Origin: an uncultured delta proteobacterium
GTDB taxonomy: Bacteria > Desulfobacterota > Syntrophobacteria > Syntrophobacterales > Syntrophobacteraceae
Reading direction: 5' to 3'
NCBI GenBank assembly: GCA_963808625.1
Contig: CAWEHK010000019.1
Span: 32,001 to 96,000, forward strand
Length of the DNA stretch: 64,000 nt
Every line of letters begins with the position of its first letter. The stretch's first letter is position 1. The translations under genes and the position numbers were made by a program. Below are positions 403-17,084 of the stretch, piece by piece. Below the pieces are notes generated by a model. That model was not told the origin of the DNA. It searched no databases and saw only the letters and a program-made list of their open reading frames with translations.

Positions 403-465
403 CGTCGACTATTCCTCCAGCAAATGGTCTGCCCATTCCTGAGCAAAGTGAAATCAGAGCCCATC

Positions 466-1110
466 TTAGAGTTGAACTCCGACTTCCTGGGTTGGCTTGT
501 CCGGATTGACGTACTGGGTTTCCTTGTTGTGGAGCAAGGCCGCCAGACCCTGGTAACGGGGCCGCGCCATGGGGTCGTTGCGCACCGGCACCGGGCGGGG
601 GCTTTCCCCTTTGGCATATTTTGCGGCATTGCGCCCCATGGCGCGAAAGGTTTCCAGATCCAGCAGCGGAGACTGTGAGAATAATTCCAAATTCTGGAGG
701 GGTTTGAGGTCTTTCTGATGAATGACCGAAGTGCCTCGCGAGAGGATGCCGATCCCGATTCCCGAGCCACTGAGCTTGGCGGCCTCGTGAGAGATGAAAG
801 CGACGTCCGCCGTGCGATAGACCTTGACCATACGCGCCTTAAGCCCTTGTTCTTCGATCCCGGCGACAATCTCCCGCAACACCTGCTGGTGGGGAATGCC
901 GATAATGGTCTTATTCATCACGGTGCCAAAAGCGGGCGGCACCGCAATAACGACCTCATTCCGGTCGACGCCGGTCCGGGCGACTCCCATTTCTTTGAAC
1001 ACCAGCGGGGTTCCGTCTCCCTTGAACGAGGTGGCAGGCCGTTCCCCTGCCTCCATTTCCCGCAATACTTCAAGGATAATCTCCTTGACCATATCTTCCG
1101 TAATATTCAT
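466..1110 (-). CDS. pduD: Diol/glycerol dehydratase medium subunit with N-terminal encapsulation peptide
   Basis: EVVIAVPPAFG, GIEEQGLKAR, LSGSGIGIGILSRGTSVIHQKDL, NLELFSQSPLL, GRNAAKYAKGESP motifs; N-terminal amphipathic helix TEDMVKEIILEVLREM. Confidence 0.95.
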   Translation of the reverse strand: MNITEDMVKEIILEVLREMEAGERPATSFKGDGTPLVFKEMGVARTGVDRNEVVIAVPPAFGTVMNKTIIGIPHQQVLREIVAGIEEQGLKARMVKVYRTADVAFISHEAAKLSGSGIGIGILSRGTSVIHQKDLKPLQNLELFSQSPLLDLETFRAMGRNAAKYAKGESPRPVPVRNDPMARPRYQGLAALLHNKETQYVNPDKPTQEVGVQL

Positions 1111-1135
1111 TGGTCTCTGCCTCCCTGACTCAGAC

Positions 1136-2824
1136 CTAAACGTCCTCGGGGCTGATGGCTTGCGGGATGTCCTTCAAGGTCTCCCACCGCTCACCTTCGA
1201 GACGATATCCGGTGCCGGGTCCCTGGTAATCGTTGAGGTCGTTAACCGCGCTCAAGACATCGAAATTGGCTTCCAGAATGGCTGAGGTATGGAGATAATC
1301 GCCGGAAATCTTTTGCTTGAGGATGCCCAGCACGGCTTCAGCCACATCACGGAATCCGTGCTTGACCAGCGCCCGGACCACATCGACTCCGTTGCCTCCG
1401 CGCTTCATGAAGTCTTCTATGGCGCGCAGATCTTCGGGCACATTGCGATCCGGTACATCCTTGCTGCCATGGGCATAGGTGACGGCTTCAACTTCCTCAT
1501 CGGTTATCGGCGGGAGCCCCACTTCTTTGAAAACAGCCTGCAAGGCTCGAGCGCCCTTGTTCCTGATCATGATGACATCCGCTTCGGTTACCGGGTGCAG
1601 ACCGCCATCAATCTGAAGGTCGCGCTGCAGGACCAGCCAGTCATCATAATCGTCGCAGTCGTGGGTGGACCCGGCAAACATGTTGTCATAATTGGGCACC
1701 GAGCTGTAGCCCGAGACAATCAGGTCCGTTCCCGGGAGAAATTGCATGAGCATCCGCGCCGTATTGCGAATGGGCGAATGGGTGAAGGTCTGGTCGTTGC
1801 CCGATGCCACTTCGAGGTCCATCAGGACGGTGGCGACATTTTCCGCAAGGACCGCGCGAATGCCCGAGGGAACGGCGCCAGGAACACCAATGCAACTGAT
1901 GGAACCATTTTGCACACCCTGGACTCCTGCTCCCTTGGCGATCATCACACACCGAACCTCCAGGTAAAGCATGGACTTACCTTCAGCGTAGCCCATTTGA
2001 ACCTCGGACCCGGTCCCTGAAGTGTAGCGCATCTTGAGGCCTCTCGAGGCGTAGGCTGAAGCCAGATAAGCTTTTGACCAGGGAGTGTCATCGCCATCCA
2101 CAAACACTTGTTCGGTACCGTAGACGGACACGGTTTCTGCATAGGACGTGAGTCCGCGCATGCCCATGCTGAGTTCGAGCGCTTCCTCGACGGCGCACTG
2201 GGTAATGACGCCGGGGCGTCCCGTTTGCGACCCTACCAGAATGGAAAGCGCGTTCATGGGAGCGTAGCGGCCCACCCCGACGGTGGTTTCTTCCTCACTG
2301 AAGCCGCGATACGCGGCTTCCGCGGCATCCGCCGCCAGGAGCGCGGGGTGGTCTTTCAGGTTGGTCACGTGGGCCTGATTGGAAGGGGTGCGTCGCGGTC
2401 GCAGCTTCTGCATGGCCATCATCAGCTCGACCACGTTCATCTTCTTCAGCACATCCAGGATCTTGGCCGGTGTCATGCCGACGGACAAACGCACGATGTC
2501 GGAGCGCGGCACGTTGATGTCCACAAGCATCCGCGCAAACTGAAGGGAATCCATGGCCATGGCCTTCTCGGCCACGGAAGTGTCGATGCAATGGTCGGCA
2601 ATCCATAAGTCGATCAAGTCGAACTTTTCGCGGGGTTTTCCGTCAAGTTCGACCACCTTACCGTTTTGGATCTTGATTCCAGGTGCTGGATCATTGGGGC
2701 TGTCCATGGCAACCAGGCCCACTTCAATCCACTCCTTGATAAAGCCGTCCTTGTTCACCGGACGCTGGGCCAGCACCTCGAAGCGTTTTTGTCTCTTACT
2801 CATCGGCTGTCCCTTCTCGATCAA
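1136..2824 (-). CDS. pduC: B12-dependent diol/glycerol dehydratase large subunit
   Basis: KRFEVLAQRPVNKDGF, YAETVSVYGTEQVFVDGDDTPWSK, QNGSISCIG, NDQTFTHS, GDYLHTSAI motifs; true start may be the downstream Met (MSKRQKR). Confidence 0.97.
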   Translation of the reverse strand: MIEKGQPMSKRQKRFEVLAQRPVNKDGFIKEWIEVGLVAMDSPNDPAPGIKIQNGKVVELDGKPREKFDLIDLWIADHCIDTSVAEKAMAMDSLQFARMLVDINVPRSDIVRLSVGMTPAKILDVLKKMNVVELMMAMQKLRPRRTPSNQAHVTNLKDHPALLAADAAEAAYRGFSEEETTVGVGRYAPMNALSILVGSQTGRPGVITQCAVEEALELSMGMRGLTSYAETVSVYGTEQVFVDGDDTPWSKAYLASAYASRGLKMRYTSGTGSEVQMGYAEGKSMLYLEVRCVMIAKGAGVQGVQNGSISCIGVPGAVPSGIRAVLAENVATVLMDLEVASGNDQTFTHSPIRNTARMLMQFLPGTDLIVSGYSSVPNYDNMFAGSTHDCDDYDDWLVLQRDLQIDGGLHPVTEADVIMIRNKGARALQAVFKEVGLPPITDEEVEAVTYAHGSKDVPDRNVPEDLRAIEDFMKRGGNGVDVVRALVKHGFRDVAEAVLGILKQKISGDYLHTSAILEANFDVLSAVNDLNDYQGPGTGYRLEGERWETLKDIPQAISPEDV

Positions 2825-3639
2825 ATGTATGGTTGCGTGACGGGCTTAGCTTCCTGACCCCATGCACCAAGCAGCTTGATTCCTATTTCGCGGCCGGCAA
2901 TCACCGCCTGGCGAACGGCGCCCGAATCACCGGTCACCCAGATCATGACCTCGTTGGTGAGGCTGGTTCCCTTTGCCGGCGAAGCATATCCCACCACCTG
3001 GACATCCGCCGCCTTGACCGCGGTATCAATCATCAAGACGCCGATCACGGCAGGCGCTCCAAGAATCAGGCCGAAGGCTTTTCCTTCAGGGGTTTTGAAC
3101 AGGTAGTTCAAGCAGCGGCTGGCGCGCGCGCTGTACTGGAGCTCGAGATGTCCCTGGTCATTGGCATAGACGTCGCCAAAGTATTTTGGCAGGGCTTCGA
3201 GCGTCACCTCGACTGCGCGCCGGGCGTCCGATACGTCCTCAGCACCGAAGATGATTAAATTTCCGTGGCCGGCCCCGCCCTTGGTATCCCGGGGCATTTC
3301 CACGGCAAGAATCTCCGTGTTGGTCGCCTTCACGGCCTCATCCGCCGCCATGACCTGAGGACCCGCCCCGACCCGGCCGCCGATGACCCCGATGGAACGG
3401 AATTTATCGGGGATTCCCATGATGTCGTGAATGATGGGATCGAGATTGGCGATGACAATCCCCTGCGTCTCTCCCAAACCCACCCCAACAAACTCCGTTA
3501 CCTGAACCAGGTCAGGACGGGAAGGCGCCGGCCCGGGGTTGCCTCCCTCGGATGGTTTCGCGCTCGCTTTCCCGGCGGAAGCGGGACCTACTCTTTTCAT
3601 TACCTCTTGCAGGACTCTGTTGATCAGTTCCTCTTGCAT
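2821..3639 (-). CDS. pduB: Microcompartment shell protein, BMC-T, PduB type
   Basis: TEFVG, GAGPQVMAADEAVKATNTE, PRDTKGGAGHG, GHLELQYSARAS, GDSGAVRQAV motifs; N-terminal helix EELINRVLQEVMKR. Confidence 0.95.
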   Translation of the reverse strand: MQEELINRVLQEVMKRVGPASAGKASAKPSEGGNPGPAPSRPDLVQVTEFVGVGLGETQGIVIANLDPIIHDIMGIPDKFRSIGVIGGRVGAGPQVMAADEAVKATNTEILAVEMPRDTKGGAGHGNLIIFGAEDVSDARRAVEVTLEALPKYFGDVYANDQGHLELQYSARASRCLNYLFKTPEGKAFGLILGAPAVIGVLMIDTAVKAADVQVVGYASPAKGTSLTNEVMIWVTGDSGAVRQAVIAGREIGIKLLGAWGQEAKPVTQPYI

Positions 3640-3690
3640 CGGATGGTACCTCCCGGCTTTGTGCAGTTATGGATAGGGCCCGAAATCGAG

Positions 3691-3978
3691 CTATTCGTTA
3701 ACCTGGAGTTGCGGCAAGATCTTTTCAACATCCTGGTGTGGCCTGGGGATCACATGGACCGAGATCACTTCGCCCACCTTCTGGGCGGCGGCGGCACCGG
3801 CGTCCGTGGCGGCCTTCACCGCGCCCACATCGCCCCTCACCATCGTGGTGACAAGGCCTGCGCCGATCTTGACATACCCGACCAATTGGACGTTGGCGGC
3901 CTTTACCATGGCATCCGATGCTTCGATCATGGCGACCAGCCCTTTAGTTTCGATCAATCCCAATGCTTCTTTCACCAT
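3691..3978 (-). CDS. pduA: Microcompartment shell protein, BMC-H, PduA/EutM type
   Basis: [27 protein letters not shown]...[15 protein letters not shown]...[13 protein letters not shown] precedes ATG at 3978. Confidence 0.93.
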
Positions 3979-4128
3979 TTTCAATCCTCCCAATCCGGCT
4001 GAAATAACATTCTGCGAACCGTGGCAGTCTCCTGCCGCTAATCACGATTCGTCCCGTTAAGCCTGGTCTCAGGCAACAACTTCTTTCTTCCCAAATTTGA
4101 ACAATTTTAAGGATCCGGCAGCCGATCC

Positions 4129-4200
4129 GGGTGGGCGTAAAGCCCGCCCCCACGAGAGGCTGTCCAATCCGCTCAGTAGCGGCGGGGTTTATCCCCGCCC
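4129..4200. repeat. REP-like palindrome doublet
   Basis: GGGTGGGCGTAAAGCCCGCCCCCAC and GTAGCGGCGGGGTTTATCCCCGCCC, two hairpins with GTAG/GTGG-type feet, between gldA and pduA. Confidence 0.7.
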
Positions 4201-4370
4201 GCAAGGAATTGGGGATTCTCTCATCCCCATGCAATGCAATCGCTCAATTTGGGTTCTTATCAGCAGCTCGGGCAGTCTCGCGGAAAGCATTCCAGCAACT
4301 GTGCCCTCCGCATGCAATGAGGTATTACAAGGTACGGCGCTGCCCGTGGCAGTTTGCCGCAACGCCATGC

Positions 4371-5477
4371 CTAAGCCCCGCCCTGGTAGTCTTTGGCCAA
4401 AGCGTCCGCCGTCCAGATTGCCGCCTCAACCATGTCCGCGGTTACGTCAAACCAGGTGGCATGAATGGTTTCGCCCGGGGCCGTGGTGGCTTCGGCCACC
4501 TGGCGGATTTCTTCCCGCGAGGGATTGTGGATGCCCAAATCATCCAAACAAACAGGTAATCCCACGGTCAGGCAAAAATCCAACACCTCATAGATTTCAT
4601 CGGAAGAGCGGCCTTCCATAACCAACTGGGTGAGGGTGCCGAAGGCCACTTTTTGGCCGTGAAGTTTGTGATGCGAACTCTCCAGGACGGTAAACCCATT
4701 ATGCACGGAGTGGGCGCCGGCAAGGCCTCCGCTTTCGAAGCCCAAACCGCTCAACAGAGTGTTGGCCTCCACAATAGCCTCGACGGCCGGCGTCACACAC
4801 TGCTTTTCCACTGCCAATTTGGCCTGGAGGCCGTATTCCAGCAAGGTATCGTAGCAAAGGCGGGCTAACGTTGTCGCGGAACGGGTGGGAGGAAATCCTC
4901 CGGTGAGCACGTTGGGCTTGCAGCTCTTGGCACAGGTGTCCGCCTCCCAGAAGGTGGCGAGAGCATCCCCCATACCGGAAACCAAGGTTTCCACAGGAGC
5001 GTTGGCGATGATGCGGGTGTCGACGAGCACGCAGTCCGGGTTGTGAGGCAAAACCAGGTAGCGTGCAAACACGCCGGCATCGGTGTAAACCACCGACAGA
5101 GCGGAGCAGGGAGCGTCCGTTGCGGCGATGGTCGGGACCACAATCACCGGGATTTTCATGAGGTGGGCTACCGCCTTGCCGGTGTCGATGACCTTGCCGC
5201 CCCCGGCGGCAATGATGAAATCAGCGCCCTCCTTGCGGGCGATGTCCACCAGGCGATTGATTTCATTGTCCGAGCATTCCCCGTTGAAATGTTCCTGGAA
5301 ACAGCCGAGGTCTTTCTCCTTGAGGCTGGCTTGAATCGACTCGGCACAGGCGGCCAGGGCTCGCTTGCCTCCGGTCAGCAAGGCCTTGGTGCCAAGCCTC
5401 GCTGCGTGCAAGCCGATTTCGTTGATGGCTCCCTGTCCTTGAACATAACGACTTGGTGCAATTAGGATCCGACTCAT
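4371..5477 (-). CDS. gldA: Glycerol dehydrogenase (family III metal-dependent alcohol dehydrogenase)
   Basis: APSRYVQG, FNGECS, GGGKVIDTGKA, PTIAATDAPCSALSVVY, ANTLLSGLGFESGGLAGAHSVHNG, HGQKVAFG. Confidence 0.93.
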   Translation of the reverse strand: MSRILIAPSRYVQGQGAINEIGLHAARLGTKALLTGGKRALAACAESIQASLKEKDLGCFQEHFNGECSDNEINRLVDIARKEGADFIIAAGGGKVIDTGKAVAHLMKIPVIVVPTIAATDAPCSALSVVYTDAGVFARYLVLPHNPDCVLVDTRIIANAPVETLVSGMGDALATFWEADTCAKSCKPNVLTGGFPPTRSATTLARLCYDTLLEYGLQAKLAVEKQCVTPAVEAIVEANTLLSGLGFESGGLAGAHSVHNGFTVLESSHHKLHGQKVAFGTLTQLVMEGRSSDEIYEVLDFCLTVGLPVCLDDLGIHNPSREEIRQVAEATTAPGETIHATWFDVTADMVEAAIWTADALAKDYQGGA

Positions 5478-5819: not shown

Positions 5820-6638
5820 CTAAACGCGGTAATGGAGCTCGCTTTTAAGAGGCAGGCCCACCGCCAGCTTTGCCGCAGCATCCTCGATGCGCTTGCGTTC
5901 GGTGGGACTGCGGACAATGCCGCGGAGCACGATATGCTCGCCATCATAGGCGACATCGAGGGTGGTAGCCTGGAGGGACGGATTCACGCAAAGGCCTGCC
6001 TTGATCTTAGCGGCCGCAGCACGCATCTGAACCAGTTTTCTGGTTTCCTCGCTACCGAAACGATCTTTTTCCATGAGAATCGCCTTGACCCGATCGGTTG
6101 CCTCTTCGATGGTCTGGATTCCCATATCGAGAATGAGGTCATATTCTTCAAAGTTCTCCCAATGCTTGCTGTACAGGGAACGAATGAAGCACGACCGCTC
6201 CCCGTCCTTCTTTTCGAGCAGCCATTGGGCGGTTTTTCGGTCCACCGCATCCCTTTGCATCACGTTTTCGATCCGCAATTCCAGGGGTCCAACCACATGA
6301 ATCGTGAGCACGTGGGGAATGCCTTTCAAGAGGAAGTTCGCTCCCATGCCGATGATCACCACCCGGTCATCCGCCGCATAATTCAGGACCGCACTCTGCA
6401 GCAGGGCGCCAAAACCTCTGAAGGACCAGTCATACTTTTCCCAGATCGTGGGGCAATGTTCATCCAAGCCCTTGCCCCATTCTTCCCATTTTTCGCCGGC
6501 CGCGCGGATATCATTCAGAATTCGTTCGCGATCAAAGTAAGCATAGCCCAAATCGTCGGCGACTCTTCGGCCGATCTCCCGGCCGCCGCTTCCAAACTGT
6601 CTCGATACGGTCAAAATGGCCATGTTTCCCTCATGCAC
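5820..6638 (-). CDS. Cytidylate kinase-like family protein with C-terminal BON-like domain
   Basis: N-terminal ILTVSRQFGSGGREIG P-loop-like motif, VVIIGMGA, YDLILD; C-terminal IKAGL...LDVAYDGEHIVLRGIVRSPTERKRIEDAA resembles BON. Confidence 0.75.
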   Translation of the reverse strand: MHEGNMAILTVSRQFGSGGREIGRRVADDLGYAYFDRERILNDIRAAGEKWEEWGKGLDEHCPTIWEKYDWSFRGFGALLQSAVLNYAADDRVVIIGMGANFLLKGIPHVLTIHVVGPLELRIENVMQRDAVDRKTAQWLLEKKDGERSCFIRSLYSKHWENFEEYDLILDMGIQTIEEATDRVKAILMEKDRFGSEETRKLVQMRAAAAKIKAGLCVNPSLQATTLDVAYDGEHIVLRGIVRSPTERKRIEDAAAKLAVGLPLKSELHYRV

Positions 6639-7392
6639 TCTTATCCGGTTCAGGATCAGGAGGAAGCCCCACTTCGCTCGCCGGGCGTTTTGCCCTCTCG
6701 GAACTGATCATCCACTTCATCCAGAGTTTGCCAACAATGATCACGCCGACGGCTAGGACGGCTTCCACCGTGTATTGCACTATCTTTGAAGGAGCCAGGA
6801 AATCGACCACCACCGGATCCGTCATGATCATCTCGCCGCCGACTCTTCCCAAGACCGCGGCCCCCACGTAAATGATGATCGGGTATCGATCCATGAGCAG
6901 CGAAAGGAGGTTGCTCGTGAAAACCACCAGGGGAATGCTCAAGCCCAGCCCGAAGAGCAGCAGGAACAGGTTGCCGTGAGAAGCACCGGCCACCGCCAGC
7001 ATATTGTCAATGGACATGGTGATATCTGCAATCACAATGATTTTGATGGCCTGGGCGATGGTCGTGGCTTCCCGTTCGATCCCTTCCTCCGGCACGCCCT
7101 CAATGAAAAGCTTTACGGCTATCCAGAGAATCACTAAACCGCCAACCAGCTTGATGAAGTTGATCAGCAACAACTGCGAGACGAAAAACGTAGCAAAGAC
7201 TCTGAGTAAGACCGCCGCCGCCGCTCCGAAAATAATCCCTTTGGTTCGCTGCTCGGAGGGCAGCGACCTCACCGCCATGGCGATAATCACAGCATTGTCT
7301 CCGGCCAGAATCAGATCGATAATGACGATGCTAAGAAGGCTGGAAAAAAACTCCCAGTTCAGATGAATCGTCCCAAACCACCCCAGGTCCAA
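6631..7392 (-). CDS. TerC family (YjbE-type) integral membrane protein
   Basis: IVIIDLILAGDNAVIIAMA, IIVIADITMSIDNMLAVAGASHG, FGLGLSIPL; multiple TM segments; overlaps the start of the next gene. Confidence 0.9.
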   Translation of the reverse strand: MDLGWFGTIHLNWEFFSSLLSIVIIDLILAGDNAVIIAMAVRSLPSEQRTKGIIFGAAAAVLLRVFATFFVSQLLLINFIKLVGGLVILWIAVKLFIEGVPEEGIEREATTIAQAIKIIVIADITMSIDNMLAVAGASHGNLFLLLFGLGLSIPLVVFTSNLLSLLMDRYPIIIYVGAAVLGRVGGEMIMTDPVVVDFLAPSKIVQYTVEAVLAVGVIIVGKLWMKWMISSERAKRPASEVGLPPDPEPDKSA

Positions 7393-7448
7393 AGCTCCAA
7401 CTCCTTATTCTGCGGTAGCGATTGTCAATTCCTAAAAGAGCACGAGTG

Positions 7449-7560
7449 ATCGCGCGGCGGATAATCAAAACTGTTTTTGATGAGTTCCGACCCCTCAGCG
7501 GGCTCTTCGAGGTCCGTGCAGTAGATGGCGGTCACTCTGAGATTGCGCTCGTCGAAAGTG
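7449..7560 (-). pseudogene. Degenerate partial duplicate of the C-terminal half of the small membrane protein at 8294-8584
   Basis: FDERNLRVTAIYCTDLEEPAEGSELIKNSFDY vs IDERGLRATAIYYTDFEEPAEGSERIRDSLDY; the upstream TM half is absent. Confidence 0.75.
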
Positions 7561-7679
7561 CAGCGAAGATCATAGACAACCCCATGGCCCGCGTCAAATT
7601 TCCTCTTTTGGCCAGGCAGGCCGCCGCGGTGGCAATGGTTGCCGACACACCGCACTGGCATTTCCGCAGGGCTAACCTG

Positions 7680-8257
7680 TCAAGCGAAAACCTGTTCGGC
7701 GAGGTCCCGCCGCAGCCGCTGGGATTCCTTCTCAATGGCGGCGATGATGTCGGCGGCGCCCTCGGCGGCGGCCAACTTCGGTTTGATCGCCGCGTAGAAC
7801 GCTTCTTCCACCCTGTACAGTCGGTTCAGGGTCAGCAGGTAGTTGGTGCGGGTGTGATAGGCGTTGCGCACAAGGGTCTCATAGTTGTCACCCTCGACCG
7901 CCAGCAAGTCCCGGTAATGGTCGACCAGGACGTTCATCCAGGCGGCATAGGGCTTTTCGAGTTCATCCGCGAGTCCGTATTGATGGACCGTCTGGTTCAC
8001 CTCTGTCCGGTGGTCCGATTCAAGGACCGCGATCGCGAACTCCAACGCTCGCCGCCGGGTGACCATGAAGTCTTCGTCGAATTTCATCCGGCCGGTCTTG
8101 TACTTCTGCATCGGTGGATGAAGTGGAGGAACAGCAACGGCACCAGCACCATCCAGAAACTCACCCGGGGCTTCTCGAACACGGCCGCACCAACGGCATT
8201 GGCAAACGCCAGCTCCCGCGCCAGGATGAGTTCCTTCTTTTTGTCCAAGTCCTTCAT
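7680..8257 (-). CDS. Conserved hypothetical protein with one TM segment (resembles the deltaproteobacterial NF038143 family, from memory); one frameshift near 8113
   Basis: ATG at 8257 gives MKDLDKKKELILARELAFANAVGAAVFEKPRVSFWMVLVPLLFLHFIH, which joins the 7680..8111 ORF (MQKYKTGRMKF...) if one base is restored. Confidence 0.7.
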
Positions 8258-8293
8258 GGTCGACCTAGGGTGGATCGCGGAATGGGGCGGCGG

Positions 8294-8584
8294 TCACTTC
8301 CCGCTGCCCGGCATGTAGTCGAGGCTGTCGCGGATGCGTTCCGATCCCTCGGCCGGTTCCTCGAAGTCCGTGTAGTAAATGGCGGTGGCCCTCAGGCCGC
8401 GTTCGTCGATCACCTGCGCCATGTGCCTGGCACCGGGCACATGGCGGGCCAGCGACCCGACCCCGAAGATCAGCGCCCAGATCATCACGAACCCGATGAT
8501 CAGCTTCAGCCAGGGGCCAAAACCTGTCTGCGGGGTTGAGGCCCCGCAGACAGTGCTGTCAGCGAAGGTGCAATTTGTGGTCAT
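8294..8584 (-). CDS. Small hypothetical membrane protein
   Basis: MTTNCTF...WLKLIIGFVMIWALIFGVG (TM)...IDERGLRATAIYYTDFEE; co-oriented downstream of the YeiH-family gene; a second degenerate copy supports coding status. Confidence 0.7.
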   Translation of the reverse strand: MTTNCTFADSTVCGASTPQTGFGPWLKLIIGFVMIWALIFGVGSLARHVPGARHMAQVIDERGLRATAIYYTDFEEPAEGSERIRDSLDYMPGSGK

Positions 8585-8760
8585 GCCCTTGGGAACCGTC
8601 CAAAAACGAATGGCACTCATTTCAGCCCTTTTGCGAACCACGAAAAACACAAAGAGTACGAAGAAATCACTTCATGTTCTTCATGGTAAAAGAAGGCCAT
8701 CTATTTTTTTGGGCCGCCCCCTTATTACTATAACGAGGTTTCCGCAGGGGGCATTAATCT

Positions 8761-8826
8761 GTGGGGCAGGCTTTCCAGCCTGCCTTCTGCCCAGTCCGGC
8801 ATGGCAGGCTGAAAAGCCTGCCCCAC
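8761..8826. repeat. REPIN-like inverted palindrome pair
   Basis: GTGGGGCAGGCTTTCCAGCCTGCC-spacer-GGCAGGCTGAAAAGCCTGCCCCAC; near-identical arms at 38789-38847. Confidence 0.85.
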
Positions 8827-8861
8827 GCGGCTTGGACCTTCTTCAAAGTATCCTTGCAGCA

Positions 8862-10619
8862 TTAGATGCCGGCCGTGACCTCCGGGAAGATAAGGTAGAA
8901 CATGATATAGCCGATCAGCAGGGTGAAGCAGAGCTGAAAGGTCTGCCCGAAGACGTAGAGAGTAATGGGCTTGCCGCCCTTGAAGTAATGGCCGAACTCT
9001 CTGAAATCGGTCTCGAGGCCGATGCAGGTGAACGCCAGGGCGAAGAACCATTCACGCGCAATGCGTGTGAAGCCCCGGAGAACGCCGTGGTCGATCATCA
9101 CGGTGCTCATATCGCTGCCCACGCTCTGGTCGATGATGGAAAAAACGATCGAGGCGATGATGAAGCCGATAACGAACTTCGGGAAGCGGTACCAGATTTC
9201 CCACCAGCTCACGGTTTGACCCGGAGCGCATTCCACTCTGGCGCACCAGTACACGGCCACGCCGAAAGCCACGACACCGATCAGCACGTTCTGGATCATC
9301 TTGATCGTTGCCGCTACGTAGAGGGCCTTTTGACCCAAAAAGGCGCCGGCCGCAGCCACGGCGCCAGTCGAATCGATGGTGCTGCCCATCCAGGCTCCGG
9401 CCAGGATCTCCGGCATTCCTACCAGCTTGGCGAACGCCGGCTGGCCCACCATGCAGATCGCCGTGAAGACCATGGAAAGCCCAATGGCCAGCGTCAGCTC
9501 CTCTTTTTTGGCCCGGCAGGCCGCGGCGGTGGCGATGGCCGCCGAGACGCCGCAGACCGACATATCGGCCGAAATGGTGATGTTCAGGGTCTTGGAAGGC
9601 ATTTTGACGATCTTCTGGCCGAACCAGTAGGTCAGGATCAGGGTGATCGGGGTGCAAATCCAGGCGATAAAGATGCCCGGTTTGCCGATGGCTAAAATCT
9701 TGTTGAAAAGGATTTCGGCACCGAGCAGAACGAGCCCGGTCTTGATGTAGAATTCGGTGCAGACCGCGGGCTGCATCCATTTGGGGGTGCCGACCGTGTT
9801 GCTGATGAGGAGGCCGAAGGCGATGGCCCACAGCGGAAAGCCGAAGCCCCAGTATTTCATCAGGGCCTGGGTTTCGGCCATGTAGGCCAATATCGCAATA
9901 ATGAAGACCGCCGGGAAGGCGATGACGAACCGGCTGAACGGGGTGCCCATGATGGCCTTGCCGATGCCGAAGAACACGGCCAGGATGATGCACAACCCGA
10001 TCAGATAGGGTATTCGGTTATAGGGTTTGACATTGAACTTGCTGTCGGCTTTGGAGAAGGCGTCCTTAGCTTTCTGCCAGGCGTTGATCTCCTTCTCGGC
10101 TGCGGCGTTGAGATTTGGGTCCTTGAAGCCTGCTGCTGCAGCGGCGGCCTGAGCGGTCTTGGCGCTTGCCAGCGCGGCTTCGGCAGCGGCCTTGGCTTTG
10201 TCCGCCGCCTCTTTAAAGGGCGCGCCCATGGCCTTGGCGGTTTCCTCGCTGCGGTAGAGGGCGTCTACCGGGTTGGTGTCCCAGTCACTGGGCGCGGCCA
10301 GGAAGTTCTGAATGGTCTTGGCGAAATCCTGGTTGGTTGCCCGAACTCCGCGTTTGGCTGATGACGCATTATACCACTCGATCGTTTTGAAGGGCGCCTT
10401 GGCGGCCTCTTCCTTCATCGTCGCATTGTACTTGGGGATTTCGGCCGCTTTCTCCGGCGGTCGCGGCAGGTAGATGACCAGCCCGATGATGAGAAGCAAA
10501 AACCCCATCCAGACAGCCATCCAGTCTTCTTTCTTGTAAAGATCCTTAAGCGAGGTCTTGCCGCTTTCTATAACTACATAATCCGGTTCCGCTGGCGACG
10601 GTGTTTTGGTTTCTGCCAT
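8862..10619 (-). CDS. YeiH / putative sulfate exporter (PSE) family transporter, long form
   Basis: EDWMAVWMG, EFYIKTGLVLLGAE, SADMSVCGVSAAIATAAAC, AWMGSTIDSTGAVAAAG, KMIQNVLIG, RFPKFVIGF, FTCIGLET; Ala/Lys-rich soluble insert after TM1; GGAGG before ATG at 10619. Confidence 0.88.
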   Translation of the reverse strand: MAETKTPSPAEPDYVVIESGKTSLKDLYKKEDWMAVWMGFLLLIIGLVIYLPRPPEKAAEIPKYNATMKEEAAKAPFKTIEWYNASSAKRGVRATNQDFAKTIQNFLAAPSDWDTNPVDALYRSEETAKAMGAPFKEAADKAKAAAEAALASAKTAQAAAAAAGFKDPNLNAAAEKEINAWQKAKDAFSKADSKFNVKPYNRIPYLIGLCIILAVFFGIGKAIMGTPFSRFVIAFPAVFIIAILAYMAETQALMKYWGFGFPLWAIAFGLLISNTVGTPKWMQPAVCTEFYIKTGLVLLGAEILFNKILAIGKPGIFIAWICTPITLILTYWFGQKIVKMPSKTLNITISADMSVCGVSAAIATAAACRAKKEELTLAIGLSMVFTAICMVGQPAFAKLVGMPEILAGAWMGSTIDSTGAVAAAGAFLGQKALYVAATIKMIQNVLIGVVAFGVAVYWCARVECAPGQTVSWWEIWYRFPKFVIGFIIASIVFSIIDQSVGSDMSTVMIDHGVLRGFTRIAREWFFALAFTCIGLETDFREFGHYFKGGKPITLYVFGQTFQLCFTLLIGYIMFYLIFPEVTAGI

Positions 10620-10997
10620 ACTACCTCCTTGTAGGAGCCCTTTACGGGCGGAAGAAGACACATCATGGCGCCTCCCTCGCAAGCCTGCCTCAGCGATGCC
10701 GAGAACAGGAGTGCTCCCTCTTCCGTCTTCAGAGGAAAACCCTCTATTCTTGCGATGTCGGAGACGGTGTCATCGTCTTTGGCCGCCTTGCCATCACCTC
10801 CTTTCGCGACGCCGCCAGCAACAATCCGAAAACCATGTTGCGCCGACGATTAAGGGTTATCCAAAGACAACTTGTCCTTCAGTTTGAGAGCCTTTTCATC
10901 CACGAAGTCACACGAAAAACTGCGAAGACACACGAAGCAAGCATTTACGTGGTAAACTATCGCAAACTGAGCAGATTGTGTCAAGTTCGTGGTCATC

Positions 10998-12044
10998 TCA
11001 CCGCTCGAATCTCTTGACGCAGGTAAGACAGGATTGATTCGGGTTTCCAATGGCCAGTCCTTCTCGAAACTGTCGGAACGCCTCACTCTCCCAGATCGCC
11101 AGCGGGTCCAGGGTGAGGACATTGCCGAAGATGCGGCGCCTGGGATCTGGCCCGGCGGCTGGCAGTTTGAGATAGACACATGGGGATGCGGAACCGTCAG
11201 CGGCCACGAAAAGCGAACGGGCGATGTTTTCACGACAGCTCATACCGGATGCGCTCGGGTCCGGCAGGCTCCAGTGGCATTCCATACCCAGGCGTCGAAT
11301 TTCGGATGCCGTTTCCTGAAGAATGGAAGCCGCTGCCGCCAGCTTCCCGGGTTCATCGAGGCCGAAACCCTCGGGCTTCAATTCAGCGCTCGGAACATAG
11401 TCGAGGGTGCTGATCACCGCCGCGTGCACGCCGAGGCGCTGCATCAGGGCCGGCAGACCGCGCACCGCTTCCATGTTCGAGGCCAGCATCAGGTAGGCGA
11501 GATGAATCTCCAGGTGCACTCCCTGGCGTGCGCGCCGGACGGCCTGGAGGAGGGATATTGCTTCACCTACCCTCTCGAAGTCTACTCCCTGACGGGAGGC
11601 GTTGGTTGCCGCACTGGTGCCGGCCAGCGAGAAGGCAATGATATCCAGACCGCTTTCCACGATCTGCAGGGCCAGGTGTTCGTTCATGATCAGGCCGCAG
11701 GTGGTGGTGGACACGGCACTCCCGGTCTTGAGCGCCAGCGCGGCCATCTCGAAGAAGGCGGGATTGAGCAGCGGTTCTCCCCAACCCTGGAGATGCACGC
11801 GGCTTGAACGCCGCATCAAGGGCCAGAGGCGGGCGAAGGTTGCCATGTCCATGTCTCGCCCCGGCCACTGCTCGTGCATGATCGTGTGGGGACAATAGCG
11901 GCAGCGGCCGGGACAGCGGGTCGAGACCTCCACCTGGAGGCAGTCCAGGAGGCGCCGAACCCCGAAAAGGCGTTCGCGAAGAGTCTCCCAGATCCCCGGT
12001 TCGCGGAATGATCGCTCGGAGGTTTTGTCCGATACTCGCTTCAT
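10998..12044 (-). CDS. Radical SAM protein with C-terminal SPASM/Twitch-like domain
   Basis: CPGRCRYC (CxxxCxxC), LQGWGEPLL; C-terminal C...FVAADGSASPC...FGNV...IWES...CLTC. Confidence 0.9.
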   Translation of the reverse strand: MKRVSDKTSERSFREPGIWETLRERLFGVRRLLDCLQVEVSTRCPGRCRYCPHTIMHEQWPGRDMDMATFARLWPLMRRSSRVHLQGWGEPLLNPAFFEMAALALKTGSAVSTTTCGLIMNEHLALQIVESGLDIIAFSLAGTSAATNASRQGVDFERVGEAISLLQAVRRARQGVHLEIHLAYLMLASNMEAVRGLPALMQRLGVHAAVISTLDYVPSAELKPEGFGLDEPGKLAAAASILQETASEIRRLGMECHWSLPDPSASGMSCRENIARSLFVAADGSASPCVYLKLPAAGPDPRRRIFGNVLTLDPLAIWESEAFRQFREGLAIGNPNQSCLTCVKRFER

Positions 12045-12058
12045 AACGAACTCACCGT

Positions 12059-12137
12059 GTCACCCCCGCATGCTTTTGGCGAGGGTCCAGGGACATAACA
12101 GTTGACCTGGATTCCCGCCAAAAGCATGCGGGTTGAC
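12059..12137. repeat. GTCA(T/C)...GAATCCAG-type palindrome pair
   Basis: GTCACCCCCGCATGCTTTTGGCGAGGGTCCAG...CTGGATTCCCGCCAAAAGCATGCGGGTTGAC; relatives at 24786, 25551 and 61156. Confidence 0.8.
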
Positions 12138-12181
12138 GCCTGGTAACGGTGGCCCTCTACTCCTTCACCCTGAATTAAGTT

Positions 12182-13026
12182 TCAGCGACCGAAAATGCTG
12201 GAGAGCCTTTGCAGCAGTCCCGGCCGAGCCGGTGCCCAGCTTACCTCCACATACGGGAGGAAAGGAAGCGCTCCCCATTTACGTTTGAAGAAACCAACTC
12301 CGGTATTGATGCCCAGCCCAAGGTTCATGAGAGTCTGCCCGCGTTGATAAGCCTCTTCCAGAAGTCCCCCAAGCAGGAGATCGGTGCTGCCCGGTGGAGC
12401 CAGCCGGGGGTCCCGGAAGCAGAACATGAAGAAAGCGGTCCGGAAGGCACTGAAATCACCCACGACAAAAGCGGCCAGCTTGCCGTCGGCGAGTCGCCCG
12501 GAAAGCACCAGGCTGCCGGGAGAGGCCGCGAGGTAGTGGGGCAGATGCTGAAAAACGTGTCGCGTTCCTGGCTCCAGATGGCGCTCGTCGAGGTAGCGCT
12601 GGACCAGCGCCAGGTGATCATCGCCCCATTGGTGTCCCCTCTCGACGGTCAGCTCCCGACTCGCCCGGCGAATAAGGTTGCGCACCTTCTGGAGGAGGTA
12701 GAGGATGCGGCACCGGCAGGGAATAATAGCAGTCCTCGGTAACCTGGCTCTCCGCCCGGGCCTGGGGCGGTCTGGCCGGTCCGATGACGGTGAGATACGC
12801 AGGTCTCTAATTTTGAGCGCTTCACTGACAGCCTCGGCCATGGCTTCCGTATCCCGAGGGTCATGCAAAGGATAACCTACCAGCACCAGCTTCTTCTCCG
12901 AGGCAAAACCCACACAGTCTCCCACCAGCTCGGCTCTGTTCCCGAGACGGTACGAACGTACGGCAGAAGTTGTTCGGGGACCACCGCCTCAGCGGTTACT
13001 CGAGCCAGGAGATCCGGGCCGATCAT
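12182..13026 (-). CDS. Fem/GNAT-fold acyl- or aminoacyl-transferase-like protein (frameshifts near 12930 and 12700-12790)
   Basis: MIGPDLLARVTAEAVVPEQL.. joins ..LVLVGYPL..GSTDLLL..LMNLGLGINTGVGFFKRKWG; ATGA overlap with the upstream gene; paralogous to the N-terminal half of 13023..14714. Confidence 0.7.
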
Positions 13027-14714
13027 TTCGCCCTCCTGACCGTGAAGCCCGCCTGACTCAGCATGGGACGCAGATCGAGCAGGTGTGCCGATCCCACCAG
13101 TACCGCACAACGGCCCCGTTCCAGAAATGGGCGCATCCGTTCGAGGAAGACGGCGTCGCGGCGATTGATGACCCATTCGGTGCGGGTGGGAAACTCGATG
13201 CTGGTGCCCATCATGCGCTCCAGGTTCCCTCTCAGGTAGGCGCGTTCATTGCGTTTCAAATACCCGTGCCAGCGGGGGCACTGGCGAAAGAAATTGATAA
13301 TGCGGGGGATCGGGATGCTCTCGAGGGTCTCGAGCTGCTCGGCGATGGTCTCCATGCCCCGCACCGTCTTTCCCATCTCCCTAGCCAGGTGCCACGCCTC
13401 AAGATCTACCGAATAACGCCAGTCATGACGTGCCAGAAAGCTGGTCCAGAGCGAAAAAAAGGCCATCCAGGGGCGGGTTTCGGCGAGAAAATGACGCACA
13501 TCCGGCGCGTTGGGAGTACTGAATCCCAGCAGCCGCGCCCAAAAACCCTGTGGTCCACATACCACTCGCTCCAGACGACGGATCTCCTCCTCCGTCAGCA
13601 GTTCGATGAGCCGGGGGCTTCCTGCGGCTGGGCTTCGCCCCACCTCCGCCACTCGGTCAAGGCTCGCCTGATCGAGCGGCCCTTCGAAGAGAACCGTATC
13701 CACCCGTTCAAAGAGTTCGCGAAAGGAGGTTTCGAAGCTGCAGCAAAAGAAGTGCGCCGTTCCGCCAAGCCAGGAACGACTCTCGTCTTTTTCGACTTCC
13801 CAGAGCATGGCGAAGTGTCGCTGCGGGGGGAGGCTGGCCAGAAACTCCCGCTTGGACATGGCTTCACCGGGCATGGCGCGCAACGCCCGCATGAACTCGT
13901 TCATCTCGGTACGGGCCTTAGCTTTTGCCTCCCAGGCCGCCATTTCATAGGGTAGCGATGGAGTCCCTCCCCACTTGGTCTTGAAGCGACGAATGCCATC
14001 GTTAACGCCGAGACCGAGATGCAGAAAATCCTTCTGCTCTCTTCTCGCCAGCTCGATCATTTTCAGAAAGAGCAGATCGGAAGCGTGAGGGGTATAATGG
14101 ATACGGGAGTGAGCCCCGAGGAGATAGGTTAAAAAACAGCCGGGAGCCGTGTCCAGCAGCAGGCAGGCGGCGAGATGACCGCGCTCGTCCCAGGCATCGA
14201 GGAAGACCAGACCAGGAGCCCGGGAGATCACATGGTCGGTGCGCGCGTAGAGCTCGCGGACGTTAGGCGGCAGGGGCACGCGAGCCAGGAATTCGGCCCA
14301 AAGGCGGCGGTGCGCCGGGGTGAACTGCGCGCCCTCTTCCACTTGGAGCGAGGTCGCGGCCTGGGCCGCCTGGCGTTCAAGACGGGACGGTACAGGTATA
14401 TCAGAAGGGAGGGTATAGTAGAAATCCTGATTAGTGCGGTAGTGCTGCAGGCGACTGGGAAGGGAGGGGCTGATCGCCCAACACCTCGTGGCCCGTGTCC
14501 GGGATAAGGCTTCGGCCAAGGCTTCGTCAAAACTTAGCGATGAATCATCTCCCGAGAGCGGATAGCCTACCGCCAGCAGCCAGTCCTTGGCAGCAACAAA
14601 AAGGTAGGGACCCAGGAGGAAGGCCGAACCGTCCGACATGGCCTCCATAAAGGCCACGGAATGTTCGGGTACCGTCGCCTTTGCCAGGACGGCATTTATC
14701 TCGGAAGGATTCAT
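13023..14714 (-). CDS. Fusion of a Fem/GNAT-like domain and a TraB/GumN (Tiki-like) domain
   Basis: N-half: VPEH, VGYPL, ASDLLF, LHLGLGVNDGIRRFKTKWGG; C-half: LWEVEK..SWLGGTAH, VLFEG, SVDL, GMETIAEQL, RRDAVF, VLVGSAHL (TraB/GumN signature); alternative GTG start at 14750. Confidence 0.78.
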   Translation of the reverse strand: MNPSEINAVLAKATVPEHSVAFMEAMSDGSAFLLGPYLFVAAKDWLLAVGYPLSGDDSSLSFDEALAEALSRTRATRCWAISPSLPSRLQHYRTNQDFYYTLPSDIPVPSRLERQAAQAATSLQVEEGAQFTPAHRRLWAEFLARVPLPPNVRELYARTDHVISRAPGLVFLDAWDERGHLAACLLLDTAPGCFLTYLLGAHSRIHYTPHASDLLFLKMIELARREQKDFLHLGLGVNDGIRRFKTKWGGTPSLPYEMAAWEAKAKARTEMNEFMRALRAMPGEAMSKREFLASLPPQRHFAMLWEVEKDESRSWLGGTAHFFCCSFETSFRELFERVDTVLFEGPLDQASLDRVAEVGRSPAAGSPRLIELLTEEEIRRLERVVCGPQGFWARLLGFSTPNAPDVRHFLAETRPWMAFFSLWTSFLARHDWRYSVDLEAWHLAREMGKTVRGMETIAEQLETLESIPIPRIINFFRQCPRWHGYLKRNERAYLRGNLERMMGTSIEFPTRTEWVINRRDAVFLERMRPFLERGRCAVLVGSAHLLDLRPMLSQAGFTVRRAK

Positions 14715-14856
14715 CACGGCACTCCATCCAGAAATACGGAAAGGAGTCACACGGACTGCGGGTCAACTTTTTATGGCCTAATCGCTTCTCAAGAGTCAAT
14801 ATATCATATCGTACGGGATTTCGCTGCGATAACCCTTTAGAGAGCGGGGAATCATC

Positions 14857-17084
14857 ATGACGCAAGCGCTTGACCATTACTCGGAATGAAGTGCTGTTTG
14901 GAGCCGACGCAACCTCGGGGATAGTGGCCGTAGAGCAGGTTTCCGGGAATCGAATGCGGCTTTTCAGGCGCGGGACGGATGGCCTGGTGCAGGAAGACGA
15001 GGCCTTCCGGCCCTTTATGGTATTGGAAAAAGAAGGGCTTCTCGATGGCTTCAGGAAGCCCTTTACAGGCCACGCGCTCAGTTCCACCAATGCCTTTAAG
15101 TTCCTGGCTCTATTTGAGAATTGGGGAGATTGCGAGAGCGCCCGAGACCACCTGCGCAAGACCAGCGGGGAATCAGCCTCCTCCCCGACGGCACCCTACC
15201 TCTATCTGGCCGATCCCGTGCATCAGCACCTGCTGCTCACCGGCAAGACCCTCTTCAAGGGCCTGGCGTTCAAGGATATCCATCGTCTCGCCCTCGATAT
15301 CGAAACCGCTTGTGCGCCGGGGTTTGAGTTTTCAAACCCTCAGAGAGAAGAGGATCGCATCCTCTCCATTGCCCTGATGGACAATCGGGGGTTCGCGGAA
15401 GTGCTGTTCGGCGGGGATATGACGGAAAAAGAGATGCTCCAGGCTTTGGGCGAGAGGATCATGGCCCTCGACCCGGACGTCCTGGAAGGGCACAACCTCT
15501 TCAATTTTGATCTCGAATATATCGTTGCCCGGGCCAGGATGCATGGCGTTAAACTGCCCTGGGGACGCAACGGCAGTGAGCCCAGGATTCGTAAATCCCG
15601 CTTTACGGTAGCCGAGCGCATCATTGATTTTACCCGCATGGACATCTTCGGCCGGCATGTCGTGGATACCATGTTTCTGCTGCAATATTACGATGTCACG
15701 GCCCGCGAGCTGGAGAGCTACGGGTTGAAATCCGCCGCGCTTCACTTCGGCCTGGCCGATGAGGACCGGACTTATATCGATGGGGACAGGATTCAATGGG
15801 CTTATGAGCATGATCCGGAAGCCCTCAAGCGCTACAACCTGGATGATGTGAGGGAAACCCTGGCGCTCTCCGAGCTTCTCGGGTATCCGTTTTTCCTGCA
15901 AGCGCAAATCTTCCCCTTTTCCTACCAGAATATTTTCGTGCGGGGCAATGCGACCAAGATCAACGCGCTGTTCCTGCGGGAGTATCTCAGGAGGCGGGCT
16001 TCCATCCCCAAGCCCATGGCCAGGGGAGATTTTGAAGGAGGCTACACGGATGTCTTTGTCGAGGGCGTGGTGAAGAACGTGGTGCACTGCGACGTCGCAT
16101 CACTTTACCCCTCGATCATGCTCTCTTTCAGCCTGAAGCCGGCAGGGGACAGCCTGGACATCTTCCTGCCCCTCCTCCGGGATTTGCGCGCCTTCCGCCT
16201 GGAAGCCAAGAGAAAAGGCCCATGAGGTCGCCTCACCCCACGATCGGGACTATTACCAGGCACTCCAGCAGACCTTCAAGATCCTCATCAATTCCTTCTA
16301 CGGTTACCTCGGGACGGCGCTGCATCATTTTTCCGATCCCGGTTTGGCGGCCGAAGTCACCCGCCTGGGACGGGAGCTTATCCGCAAGATGCTGGCGTGG
16401 CTGGAAGAAGAGGGGGCGACGCCGGTCGAGATCGACACCGACGGGATTTACTTTGTGCCGCCTCCCGGCGTGGTCACCGAAGAGCAGGCCGGGGCGCTGG
16501 TTGCGCGGCTTTCCCAGAGCCTTCCGGAAGGCATCGAGGTGGAGATGGATGGGCGCTATGTCTCGATGTTCTCGTATAAGAAGAAAAACTACGCGCTGCT
16601 CGATGCGTCGGGAAACGTCACCATAAGAGGAAGCGGACTTCGTTCAAGGGGAATGGAAAAATACCTGCGGGAATTTCTTGCAGCCATGATTCGCCTGCTG
16701 CTCGAAGGGAGAGGAGAGGAAGTCAGTCAGCTCTACAAGGGCTTCGACGAGCGCCTGAAACAGCACCAGATGGACATTGCCTTGCTGGCAAAAACGGAGA
16801 CCCTTACCGAAACTCCTGAGAACTATCAACTAAAAATCAAAGCCAAGAAGCGCAACCGGGCGGCGGCTTACGAGCTTGCCTTGAGCTCGGGACGAGATTT
16901 CCGCGCCGGCGATCAGGTCTCCTATTACGTGACCGGCAGCGACAAGAAAGTGCGCGTTTTTGAAAACTGCAAATTCGCTTCCAGCTACGATCCGACTCAA
17001 CCGGATGAAAATATCGCCTATTATCAGGCCAAATTGCTTGAGCTGGTGAAGAAATTCCAGGATTTCCTGCCCCGGATGCCTTAG
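14857..17084 (+). CDS. polB: Family B DNA polymerase (Pol II-like) with 3'-5' exonuclease; frameshift near 16215 and probably near 14868
   Basis: ExoI ALDIET, ExoII GHNLFNFD, ExoIII YNLDDV, motif A DVASLYPSI, motif B KILINSFYGYLG (read in the second frame at about 16280-16315), motif C EIDTDG. Confidence 0.9.

Follow-up and report, generated by a model that had tools for sequence, protein, structure and literature searches.

A conserved unit of two FemX/DUF2156-fold proteins, a TraB/GumN domain, and a radical SAM enzyme with a tentative role at the membrane surface

The gene unit and its reading frames

The DNA analyzed here (the window) is a stretch of 64,000 nucleotides from an uncultured delta proteobacterium (contig CAWEHK010000019.1), and its subject is a group of three adjacent genes, A, B, and C, all on the minus strand. 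Gene A encodes a transferase-like domain (Fem-a) fused to a TraB/GumN domain, gene B encodes a paralogue of that transferase domain (Fem-b), and gene C encodes a radical SAM (rSAM) protein. We found that each domain fell into a known fold class, that the unit was real and conserved, and that this combination of enzymes was undescribed. It was not found in NCBIfam or PADLOC, nor was it described in the text accessible to our literature search, which ran without supplements and had most subscription journals outside it. A preliminary description, made from the letters and their translations, had likewise been unable to assign the genes to a described system.

The features are collected in Table 1. 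As that description had reported, the three genes were co-oriented and the stop codon of A overlapped the ATG of B in an ATGA at 13023-13026. The transferase and TraB/GumN motifs that it named were all present: A contained VPE15, GYPL50, ASDLL211, LGLGVNDGIRRFKTKWG233, GTAH318, ETIAEQ455, RRD518, and VGSAH540, the long open frame of B contained GYPL, GSTDLL, and LGLGINTGVGFFKRKWG, and the first frame of B contained VVPE. The start of A was most likely the ATG at 14714 rather than the GTG at 14750, because the resulting 563 amino acids (aa) matched the length of most orthologues.

Table 1. Positions in the window of the unit, its predicted domains, and its 3' neighbor
Feature	Position	Strand	Description
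Gene A	13023..14714	-	563 aa; Fem-a domain (FemX/DUF2156 fold) fused to TraB/GumN (TIKI)
Fem-a domain of A	13929..14714	-	aa 1-262, double GNAT
TraB/GumN domain of A	13032..13808	-	aa 303-561; PF01963 E 2e-31
Gene B	12182..13026	-	Fem-b paralogue of Fem-a; orthologues suggest ~281 aa
C-terminal amphipathic helix of B	12185..12217	-	LLQRLSSIFGR, predicted to anchor B in the membrane (hydrophobic moment 0.66)
Palindromic repeat between B and C	12051..12180	.	member of a genome-wide repeat family
Gene C	10998..12044	-	348 aa radical SAM; C44-C48-C51 plus Twitch C270, C289, C339, C342
Amphipathic aromatic N-terminus of C	11967-11999	-	PGIWETLRERL
YeiH/PSE-family transporter	8862..10619	-	PF03601; 3' of the unit, same strand; recurrent but optional neighbor

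Compared with the relatives at loci L002-L004 (L and G numbers are our labels for loci and genomes), B carried single-base indels at three places, near 12931, 12808, and 12699. Opposite indels were found in relatives' contigs at 12928, 12808, and 12691-12693 (low depth, one or two contigs each), and the flanking Family B DNA polymerase gene, intact in L004 and L001, was also split by a frameshift in the window. The indels of B are therefore probably assembly errors, as judged from the contigs of relatives. The hairpin between B and C was rejected as an RNA of the system or as a selenocysteine insertion sequence (SECIS), since its repeat family counts about 82 merged loci across the genome and the hairpin was missing from one relative's contig. 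A second intergenic repeat family, at about 10890-10950, gave 43 BLAST hits and differed from the long perfect hairpin. A scan of promoters and terminators gave nothing clearly exceeding chance, and no sequencing run with RNA was listed as carrying the unit, all shares being 0.13 or less.

Conservation, gene order, and the link to a radical SAM family

Three sets of sequences were used. GTDB genomes were searched with A, giving 43 loci; a sample of 401 genomes of the phylum was scored with a profile of 121 Fem sequences; and 79 metagenome loci were found through TraB alone, among the 80 best of the 470 stretches that were confirmed. The sets share a few genomes (for instance, L009 is the same as G353, and L019 the same as G376) and do not count as independent samples. 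At the GTDB loci, B followed A in 37 of the 40 with room for it, and a close C came next in 24 of 37. When the locus was without C, a family rSAM was encoded elsewhere in nine of ten genomes checked, and of four genomes in which no B adjoined, three had a second Fem copy at another site. The Fem profile matched 38/401 phylum genomes (about 9%), 34 of them at least twice. More distant loci had four separate genes in the order Fem-a, TraB, Fem-b, and rSAM. The same order recurred around TraB in the metagenomes, with Fem upstream in 70/72 loci, Fem downstream in 60/64, and rSAM next in 44/48 (loci with room). The co-conservation of the trio was thus borne out in genomes, in metagenomes, and in fusions.

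Natural fusions joined A to B (P0005 and P0012) or B to rSAM (P0010, P0013, and P0026, with the closely related L003 and L004). Two genomes (G025 and G333) had Fem-a and TraB at one site and Fem-b beside a YeiH gene at another, where G333 also had the rSAM. From these fusions and split loci we infer two sub-modules, rSAM with Fem-b and Fem-a with TraB. The three-gene unit of the preliminary description was real, but a division into four domains (Fem-a, TraB, Fem-b, and rSAM) describes it better; the rSAM also occurred alone, often beside YeiH.

At 50% identity the Fem family comprised 527 representatives. Many anaerobic bacteria of the sulfur cycle have retained the enzymes as a set. The unit was also present in records labelled Nitrospirota, Bacillota/Clostridia, and Hyphomicrobiales, and the cultured isolates Desulfobulbus alkaliphilus DSM 24258 and Desulfurivibrio sp. 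C05AmB have Fem-a/TraB and Fem-b genes. Plasmid and phage collections contained no Fem-b match. An anti-phage system was considered and rejected, PADLOC having no match to Fem or TraB and only generic, viperin-level matches to the radical SAM protein. A YeeE pair, SHMT, GT2, transketolase, and M20 peptidases were set aside as partners, each being confined to 4-8 loci of related genomes. Several loci departed from the usual layout. At L138 (G121:C10, 5531-7429), an apparent internal deletion had left a 632-aa protein in which Fem-a and the beginning of TraB ran into the C-terminal portion of the rSAM; at L119 (G041:C10, 5642-6971), the Fem pair was directly followed, on its own strand, by genes for a freestanding DUF2156 protein and for a small GNAT; and L190 held two TraB genes in the order YeiH, Fem, TraB, Fem, TraB, rSAM, YeiH. 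The 975-aa version of A at L028 was a mis-called start.

With a family threshold of E 1e-60, set after a gap in the scores was seen, the rSAM was present in 36/38 Fem-positive and 50/363 Fem-negative genomes. In the two exceptions (G313 and G326) the unit lay at a contig end. The TraB subfamily was present in 12/13 Fem-positive and 0/13 rSAM-only genomes. These co-occurrence counts indicate that the block of Fem-a, TraB, and Fem-b depends on this rSAM family, and that the rSAM is able to exist without the block. At least three rSAM lineages adjoined Fem genes, and in a quick tree the lineage of the window was nearer to stand-alone rSAMs than to the lineage of the four-gene loci. A second, stand-alone member of the family, from the four-gene lineage and with an N-terminal frameshift, lay outside the window about 25 kb off (G000:C19:17369-18452).

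The stand-alone rSAM adjoined a YeiH/PSE transporter gene in 12 of the 19 fetched loci in which an rSAM was called. Two YeiH subfamilies were distinguished. Genomes with the distant subfamily (37-42% identity to the YeiH of the window) carried the rSAM in 36/36 cases, often adjacent and also without Fem or TraB, versus 13/30 for the near subfamily, to which the window's own YeiH belongs. The rSAM and the distant YeiH subfamily may be a system of their own, for example at L145, L148, L149, L156, and L157, and a tight link between this rSAM family and a YeiH subfamily is indicated. Other stand-alone rSAMs (L158, L159, and L164) occurred with ArsR, a SaoE-like permease, thioredoxin, and an arsenate-reductase-like gene.

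Predicted activities and the nature of the substrate

The N-terminal domain of A and an intact orthologue of B were each predicted to be a double GNAT, with an AlphaFold predicted local distance difference test (pLDDT) of 82.9 for A, and a pLDDT of 95.3 and a predicted template modelling score (pTM) of 0.90 for the orthologue. In both models the two subdomains had the FemX/DUF2156 arrangement, in agreement with the GNAT/Fem fold first proposed from motifs. For both models, the top nine rows of the VIA search were FemX, FemA, Sbb17, the DUF2156-like 2hqy, and MprF/L-PGS (Z 16.5-19.8, 236-265 residues aligned). Fem-a reached Z 19.8 to FemX 6snr and 19.1 to Sbb17, 2hqy, and 4ii9, and the B orthologue reached 16.7-19.6 to tRNA-transferase folds. 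A Foldseek search of A returned the same fold class. Sequence profiles gave weaker signals: the Fem profile had four weak matches in the PDB, all DUF2156/LPG-synthase proteins (E 0.018-1.3), and of the eight NCBIfam families weakly matched by Fem, seven were arginyltransferase, FemAB-like, or MprF models. PF09924 (cut-off 27.5 bits) scored B at 14.6 bits and was passed by two of 25 representatives (34.3 and 38.8 bits). The FemAB Pfam family had no match in A, B, C, or the representatives, and TIGR03019 weakly matched 6/121 sequences.

Fem-a and Fem-b formed two clades, each spanning three-gene and four-gene loci. Both kept P17-E18, G51-Y52-P53, D99, H138, D216, and F-K-x-K-W, with diagnostic residues that differed per clade, and they look like two specialized enzymes or a fixed pair. 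Within F-K-x-K-W, F247 and K248 were each conserved at 97% in 186 Fem sequences; Fem-a of the window keeps H135, D213, N238, and F244-K245-x-K247-W248. The helix between the GNAT subdomains (113-125 of the B model) was basic in Fem-b, with a mean net charge of +3.2 to +3.8 and 4.2-4.9 K+R. F304/K305 of FemX and a basic helix are described as hallmarks of tRNA-dependent GNATs in PMC9351520, PMC12945691, and PMC7334510. The ranking of folds, the F-K motif, and the basic character of the helix between the domains make aminoacyl-tRNA the probable donor; this prediction from models stands on much firmer ground than any assignment of the acceptor.

The same data bear on two other readings. If the GNAT domains were acyl-CoA or acyl-ACP acyltransferases and TraB a deacylase, one could understand why Acetyltransf_6 was the sole Pfam match of B over its cut-off (E 1.5e-6, with a weak signal at the N-terminus of A), why some members carry the source name 'GNAT family N-acetyltransferase', and why tandem acyl-CoA GNATs were found at Z 13-15.5. 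However, these reached at most 15.5 for A and 14.1 for the B orthologue, the tRNA-dependent group stood 1-3 Z units above the rest in both searches, and the F-K motif and basic helix were kept, so that we regard this reading as very improbable. Peptidoglycan side-chain synthesis of the FemABX kind, with TraB as a trimming peptidase, would accord with FemX and FemA among the top folds and with the fact that Fem enzymes act as a series of paralogues. Yet cell-wall genes appeared as single neighbors only (MurJ at L129, NlpC/P60 at L135, and YkuD at L012), the unit was patchy (38/401 genomes), and we know of no role of a Twitch rSAM in peptidoglycan side-chain chemistry; its probability is, if anything, a shade smaller.

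The TraB/GumN domain of A is complete, as had been claimed: it scored 110.3 bits against a cut-off of 26.8 and covered positions 1-263 of 263 of PF01963. H321, E344, D437, E455, and R519 were present in 75/75 TraB sequences, D520 in 74/75, and H544 in 73/75, and we take these putative catalytic residues to match those of Tiki and their numbering. Both proteases and esterases with a His/Glu set are found among the TIKI enzymes (PMC6254334). A sequence search of the PDB found no solved relative of the TraB domain, and the result rows of whole-protein fold searches of A were taken up by the GNAT domain. The absence of a signal peptide from the fusion, which the preliminary description had found unusual, was confirmed by a simple hydropathy scan, in which A, B, and C had neither a transmembrane nor a signal segment, and by the N-termini of 20 stand-alone TraB copies, which had no signal peptide either. 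An internal helix of TraB was unsupported as a membrane anchor, with a moment over 0.6 in 3/70 sequences. The sequences thus support a complete, cytoplasmic TraB domain. To our knowledge, bacterial TraB/GumN proteins have no defined substrate. In the unit, this subfamily is tied to a pair of tRNA-type transferases and to a radical SAM enzyme of the Twitch type, and the hydrolase should therefore act on the product of its partners.

Besides CxxxCxxC, C carried a single four-cysteine auxiliary cluster motif, whose cysteines (listed in Table 1) were invariant in 31 aligned rSAM sequences from all lineages. Since only four C-terminal cysteines were conserved, the auxiliary domain fits a single-cluster Twitch domain; SPASM peptide maturases are expected to have seven or more. 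Of the earlier radical SAM/SPASM-type label, the CxxxCxxC, the C-terminal cysteines, and the Pfam matches (Radical_SAM E 8.5e-13, SPASM E 1.5e-8) stood, but the cysteine set of peptide maturases did not. The closest solved sequence was BtrN (E 2.6e-15), whose auxiliary cluster is described as having four cysteine ligands (PMC9012708). By analogy, and because of the four-cysteine Twitch domain, C would carry out a BtrN-like alcohol dehydrogenation.

Comparison of C with metalloenzyme-maturase models, as proposed beforehand, placed it far under their cut-offs. The nearest NCBIfam families were TIGR04317 and TIGR04311, for which a role in tungsten or molybdenum enzyme maturation has been suggested, and aldehyde:ferredoxin oxidoreductase (AOR) lay near the unit in six GTDB genomes of two families and in 7/79 metagenome loci. 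Scores, however, lay in the range of 99-192 bits, with cut-offs set at 380 and 400: C reached 105.9 of 380 bits for TIGR04317 and 110.6 of 400 for TIGR04311, and 12 relatives reached at most 191.5 and 164.6 bits, respectively. True TIGR04317 genes coexisted separately in 3/30 unit-carrying genomes (G208, G071, and G134). AOR was present in 33/38 carriers, 25/30 rSAM-only genomes, and 28/40 genomes with neither, and is thus neither required nor clearly enriched among carriers. The five carriers without it were 93-100% complete and included two with whole units (G353 and G199), and the family with most AOR adjacency had 11-27 AOR matches per genome. C was rejected as a tungsten maturase on its scores, the separate TIGR04317 genes, and the distribution of AOR, and maturation of such enzymes by the unit is barely credible. 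The wider expectation of a peptide, protein, or cofactor maturation pathway was also weakened by these scores, the five carriers without AOR, and the Twitch-type domain near BtrN.

The termini of two of the proteins gave a hint of location. An amphipathic, non-acidic C-terminal tail was found in 59/72 stand-alone Fem proteins versus 113/411 unrelated proteins of the same loci, counts that are inflated by related sequences, and the median hydrophobic moment of the tail was 0.58 versus 0.45 (a shuffle control was also run). The N-terminus of the rSAM had a moment of 0.59 versus 0.43, and two or more W/F in 43/51 versus 161/411 proteins, counts likewise inflated by related sequences. These helices presumably resemble the membrane-targeting helices of MinD. 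The Fem-b tails and the rSAM N-termini point to a unit placed at the membrane surface, as far as sequence can indicate, and the terminal helices could instead be protein-contact surfaces.

We propose that the unit is a membrane-surface pathway that combines radical oxidation of a lipid head group with its tRNA-dependent aminoacylation and deacylation, a reading to which we assign a probability of roughly 40%. It would act at the cytoplasmic face of the inner membrane. The rSAM would act first, oxidizing an alcohol of a sugar or polyol head group on a lipid; this order is suggested because the rSAM occurred without Fem and TraB, and Fem and TraB almost never occurred without the rSAM. Fem-b, the fusion partner of the rSAM, and Fem-a would then add amino acids from aminoacyl-tRNA, and TraB, the fusion partner of Fem-a, would hydrolyze one aminoacyl group off for turnover or deprotection. 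A lipid is suggested by the amphipathic helices together with the synthase-plus-hydrolase precedent of MprF and ErdS. Aminoacyl-lipid synthases are reported to be usually paired with a neighboring hydrolase (PMC7334510), and a freestanding DUF2156 protein without membrane spans, ErgS, to aminoacylate a lipid (PMC8913301).

Several observations weigh against a lipid pathway. The rSAM N-termini were the weaker signal, only 23/51 passing the combined test versus 83/411 controls. F-K-x-K-W stands at the place expected for F304-K305 of FemX by motif position and not by residue superposition, and the inter-GNAT helix was less basic in Fem-a (net +1.6 to +1.9, K+R 3.3). The partner hydrolases named in PMC7334510 are of the alpha/beta or VirJ type, not TIKI. 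Kinship among the genomes means that the co-occurrence counts overstate independence. No substrate gene was conserved beside the unit, where the flanks were diverse. Sbb17, with a soluble amino-sugar acceptor, and FemX, with a peptidoglycan precursor, matched the models at least as well as MprF, and therefore the fold gives no preference for lipid. The YeiH family has been proposed as a sulfite exporter (PMC11582611), and as a recurrent neighbor it makes a soluble substrate fit better.

A soluble pathway, comparable to Orf11 and Sbb17 of BD-12/streptothricin or to DhpH-C followed by DhpK in dehydrophos, is the main rival, unlikely but deserving serious weight. The substrate oxidized by the rSAM would be an amino-sugar, a cyclitol, or a sulfonated alcohol, residues would be attached one after another by two tRNA-dependent ligases, TraB would trim or deprotect, and YeiH would move the substrate, the product, or released sulfite. 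The Sbb17 scores (Z 19.1 and 19.3) favor it, as do the soluble aminocyclitol substrate of BtrN and the two tRNA-dependent GNATs of dehydrophos, and the association of YeiH with the rSAM in all distant-subfamily genomes and downstream in 17/29 long metagenome loci. Against this, aminotransferase, sugar-nucleotide, and other precursor genes were not conserved nearby, no YeiH was matched at E 1e-60 in 9/38 Fem-positive genomes, the YeiH of the window belongs to the more weakly linked subfamily, and the amphipathic tails would need another explanation.

The commonest weak NCBIfam match of Fem, arginyltransferase (23/121, best E 2.4e-7), is a protein-modifying enzyme, and this too tells against a lipid. 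It favors processing of a protein or peptide, in which TraB would cut an N-terminus, Fem would tag the new end in the manner of Ate1, Bpt, or L/F-transferase, and the rSAM would modify it, as in an N-degron or a peptide made by the ribosome and modified after translation (RiPP). Tiki proteins are N-terminal proteases, and some graspetide loci have Tiki/TraB peptidases beside SPASM enzymes (PMC8939145). Such processing nevertheless seems rather improbable: C has four auxiliary cysteines only, Pfam scans of C and its fused relatives found no RRE or PqqD domain, and the L/F-transferase 2dps was reached at Z 11.8-11.9 only. As had been noted before, no precursor peptide lay nearby, and among 987 open reading frames (ORFs) compared, none of the short ones lying up to 700 nt from the unit was conserved across lineages, though a precursor could be encoded elsewhere.

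The lipid pathway can be extended to a form of membrane remodelling in anaerobic sulfur-cycling bacteria, with a head group made by the rSAM, a tag of one or two residues, Tiki-type editing, and coupling to YeiH; this fuller picture is doubtful. If true, it would represent a new class of amino-lipid, would for the first time define what a bacterial TraB/GumN subfamily acts on, and would pair radical chemistry with aminoacyl-tRNA transfer in a new way.

Surrounding genes and comparison with known systems

On the other side of A from B, a divergent Family B DNA polymerase gene occupied 14870-17084 of the window and was frameshifted. The minus strand of 5820-10619 encoded YeiH, a short membrane protein that contained a YYTD motif, a frameshifted HYxxLL (NF038143), TerC/YjbE, and a cytidylate-kinase-like+BON protein, and parts of this block adjoined the rSAM family elsewhere (L006, L009, L122, L145, L146, L150, L153, and L243). 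Genes resembling a diol/glycerol dehydratase and microcompartment cluster, as judged by eye in the translations, lay at 1-5477 and upstream on the contig, with an adjoining glycerol dehydrogenase gene (NF006941).

The unit shared features with several known systems. Among the natural-product tRNA-dependent GNATs (Sbb17, Sba18, Orf11, DhpH-C, DhpK, VlmA, and PacB), Sbb17 had the same size and fold (286 aa, Z 19.1-19.3), and dehydrophos also uses two tRNA-dependent ligases per pathway. Unlike these Streptomyces enzymes, the unit has no surrounding biosynthetic cluster and is found in anaerobic Desulfobacterota. C resembled BtrN in sequence and in its four auxiliary cysteines, but the two aligned over two short stretches only, and C is longer and has an amphipathic N-terminus. 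Its nearest curated families, TIGR04317 (W_rSAM_matur) and TIGR04311 (rSAM_Geo_metal), differed in that C was far under their cut-offs, true TIGR04317 members were separate genes, and C had no dependence on AOR. The TraB domain shared PF01963 and the His, Glu, Arg, and Asp set with the Tiki/TraB/PrgY/GumN proteins, of the TIKI superfamily that includes the erythromycin esterases; unlike Tiki and GumN, the subfamily described here is cytoplasmic, without signal peptide or anchor, and tied to a Fem pair. The FemABX proteins (FemXWv 4ii9, FemX 6snr, and FemA 1lrz) matched in fold (Z 16.7-19.8) and in keeping paralogues together. In contrast to them, Fem-a and Fem-b have about 265-283 aa rather than 335-400, share 8-14% identity with them, have no linkage to cell-wall genes, and have TraB and a radical SAM enzyme as partners.

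MprF and the other aminoacyl-phosphatidylglycerol synthases (aaPGS) had in common with the unit the double-GNAT fold (Z 16.5-18.3 to 6lv0, 4v36, 9j8q, and 6lvf), the basic inter-domain helix, and, by motif position, the F-K motif. As in the unit, the transferase is encoded beside a hydrolase in MprF with an AcvB/VirJ-type hydrolase and in the fungal ErdS/ErdH, and the freestanding ErgS belongs to the same group. Canonical PF09924 proteins were separate from the Fem pair in 16/37 carriers. Unlike MprF, the unit has no flippase or membrane domain in A, B, C, or the long representatives, and it is set apart from MprF and ErdS by two ancient paralogues, a cytoplasmic TIKI/TraB hydrolase, and a radical SAM partner.

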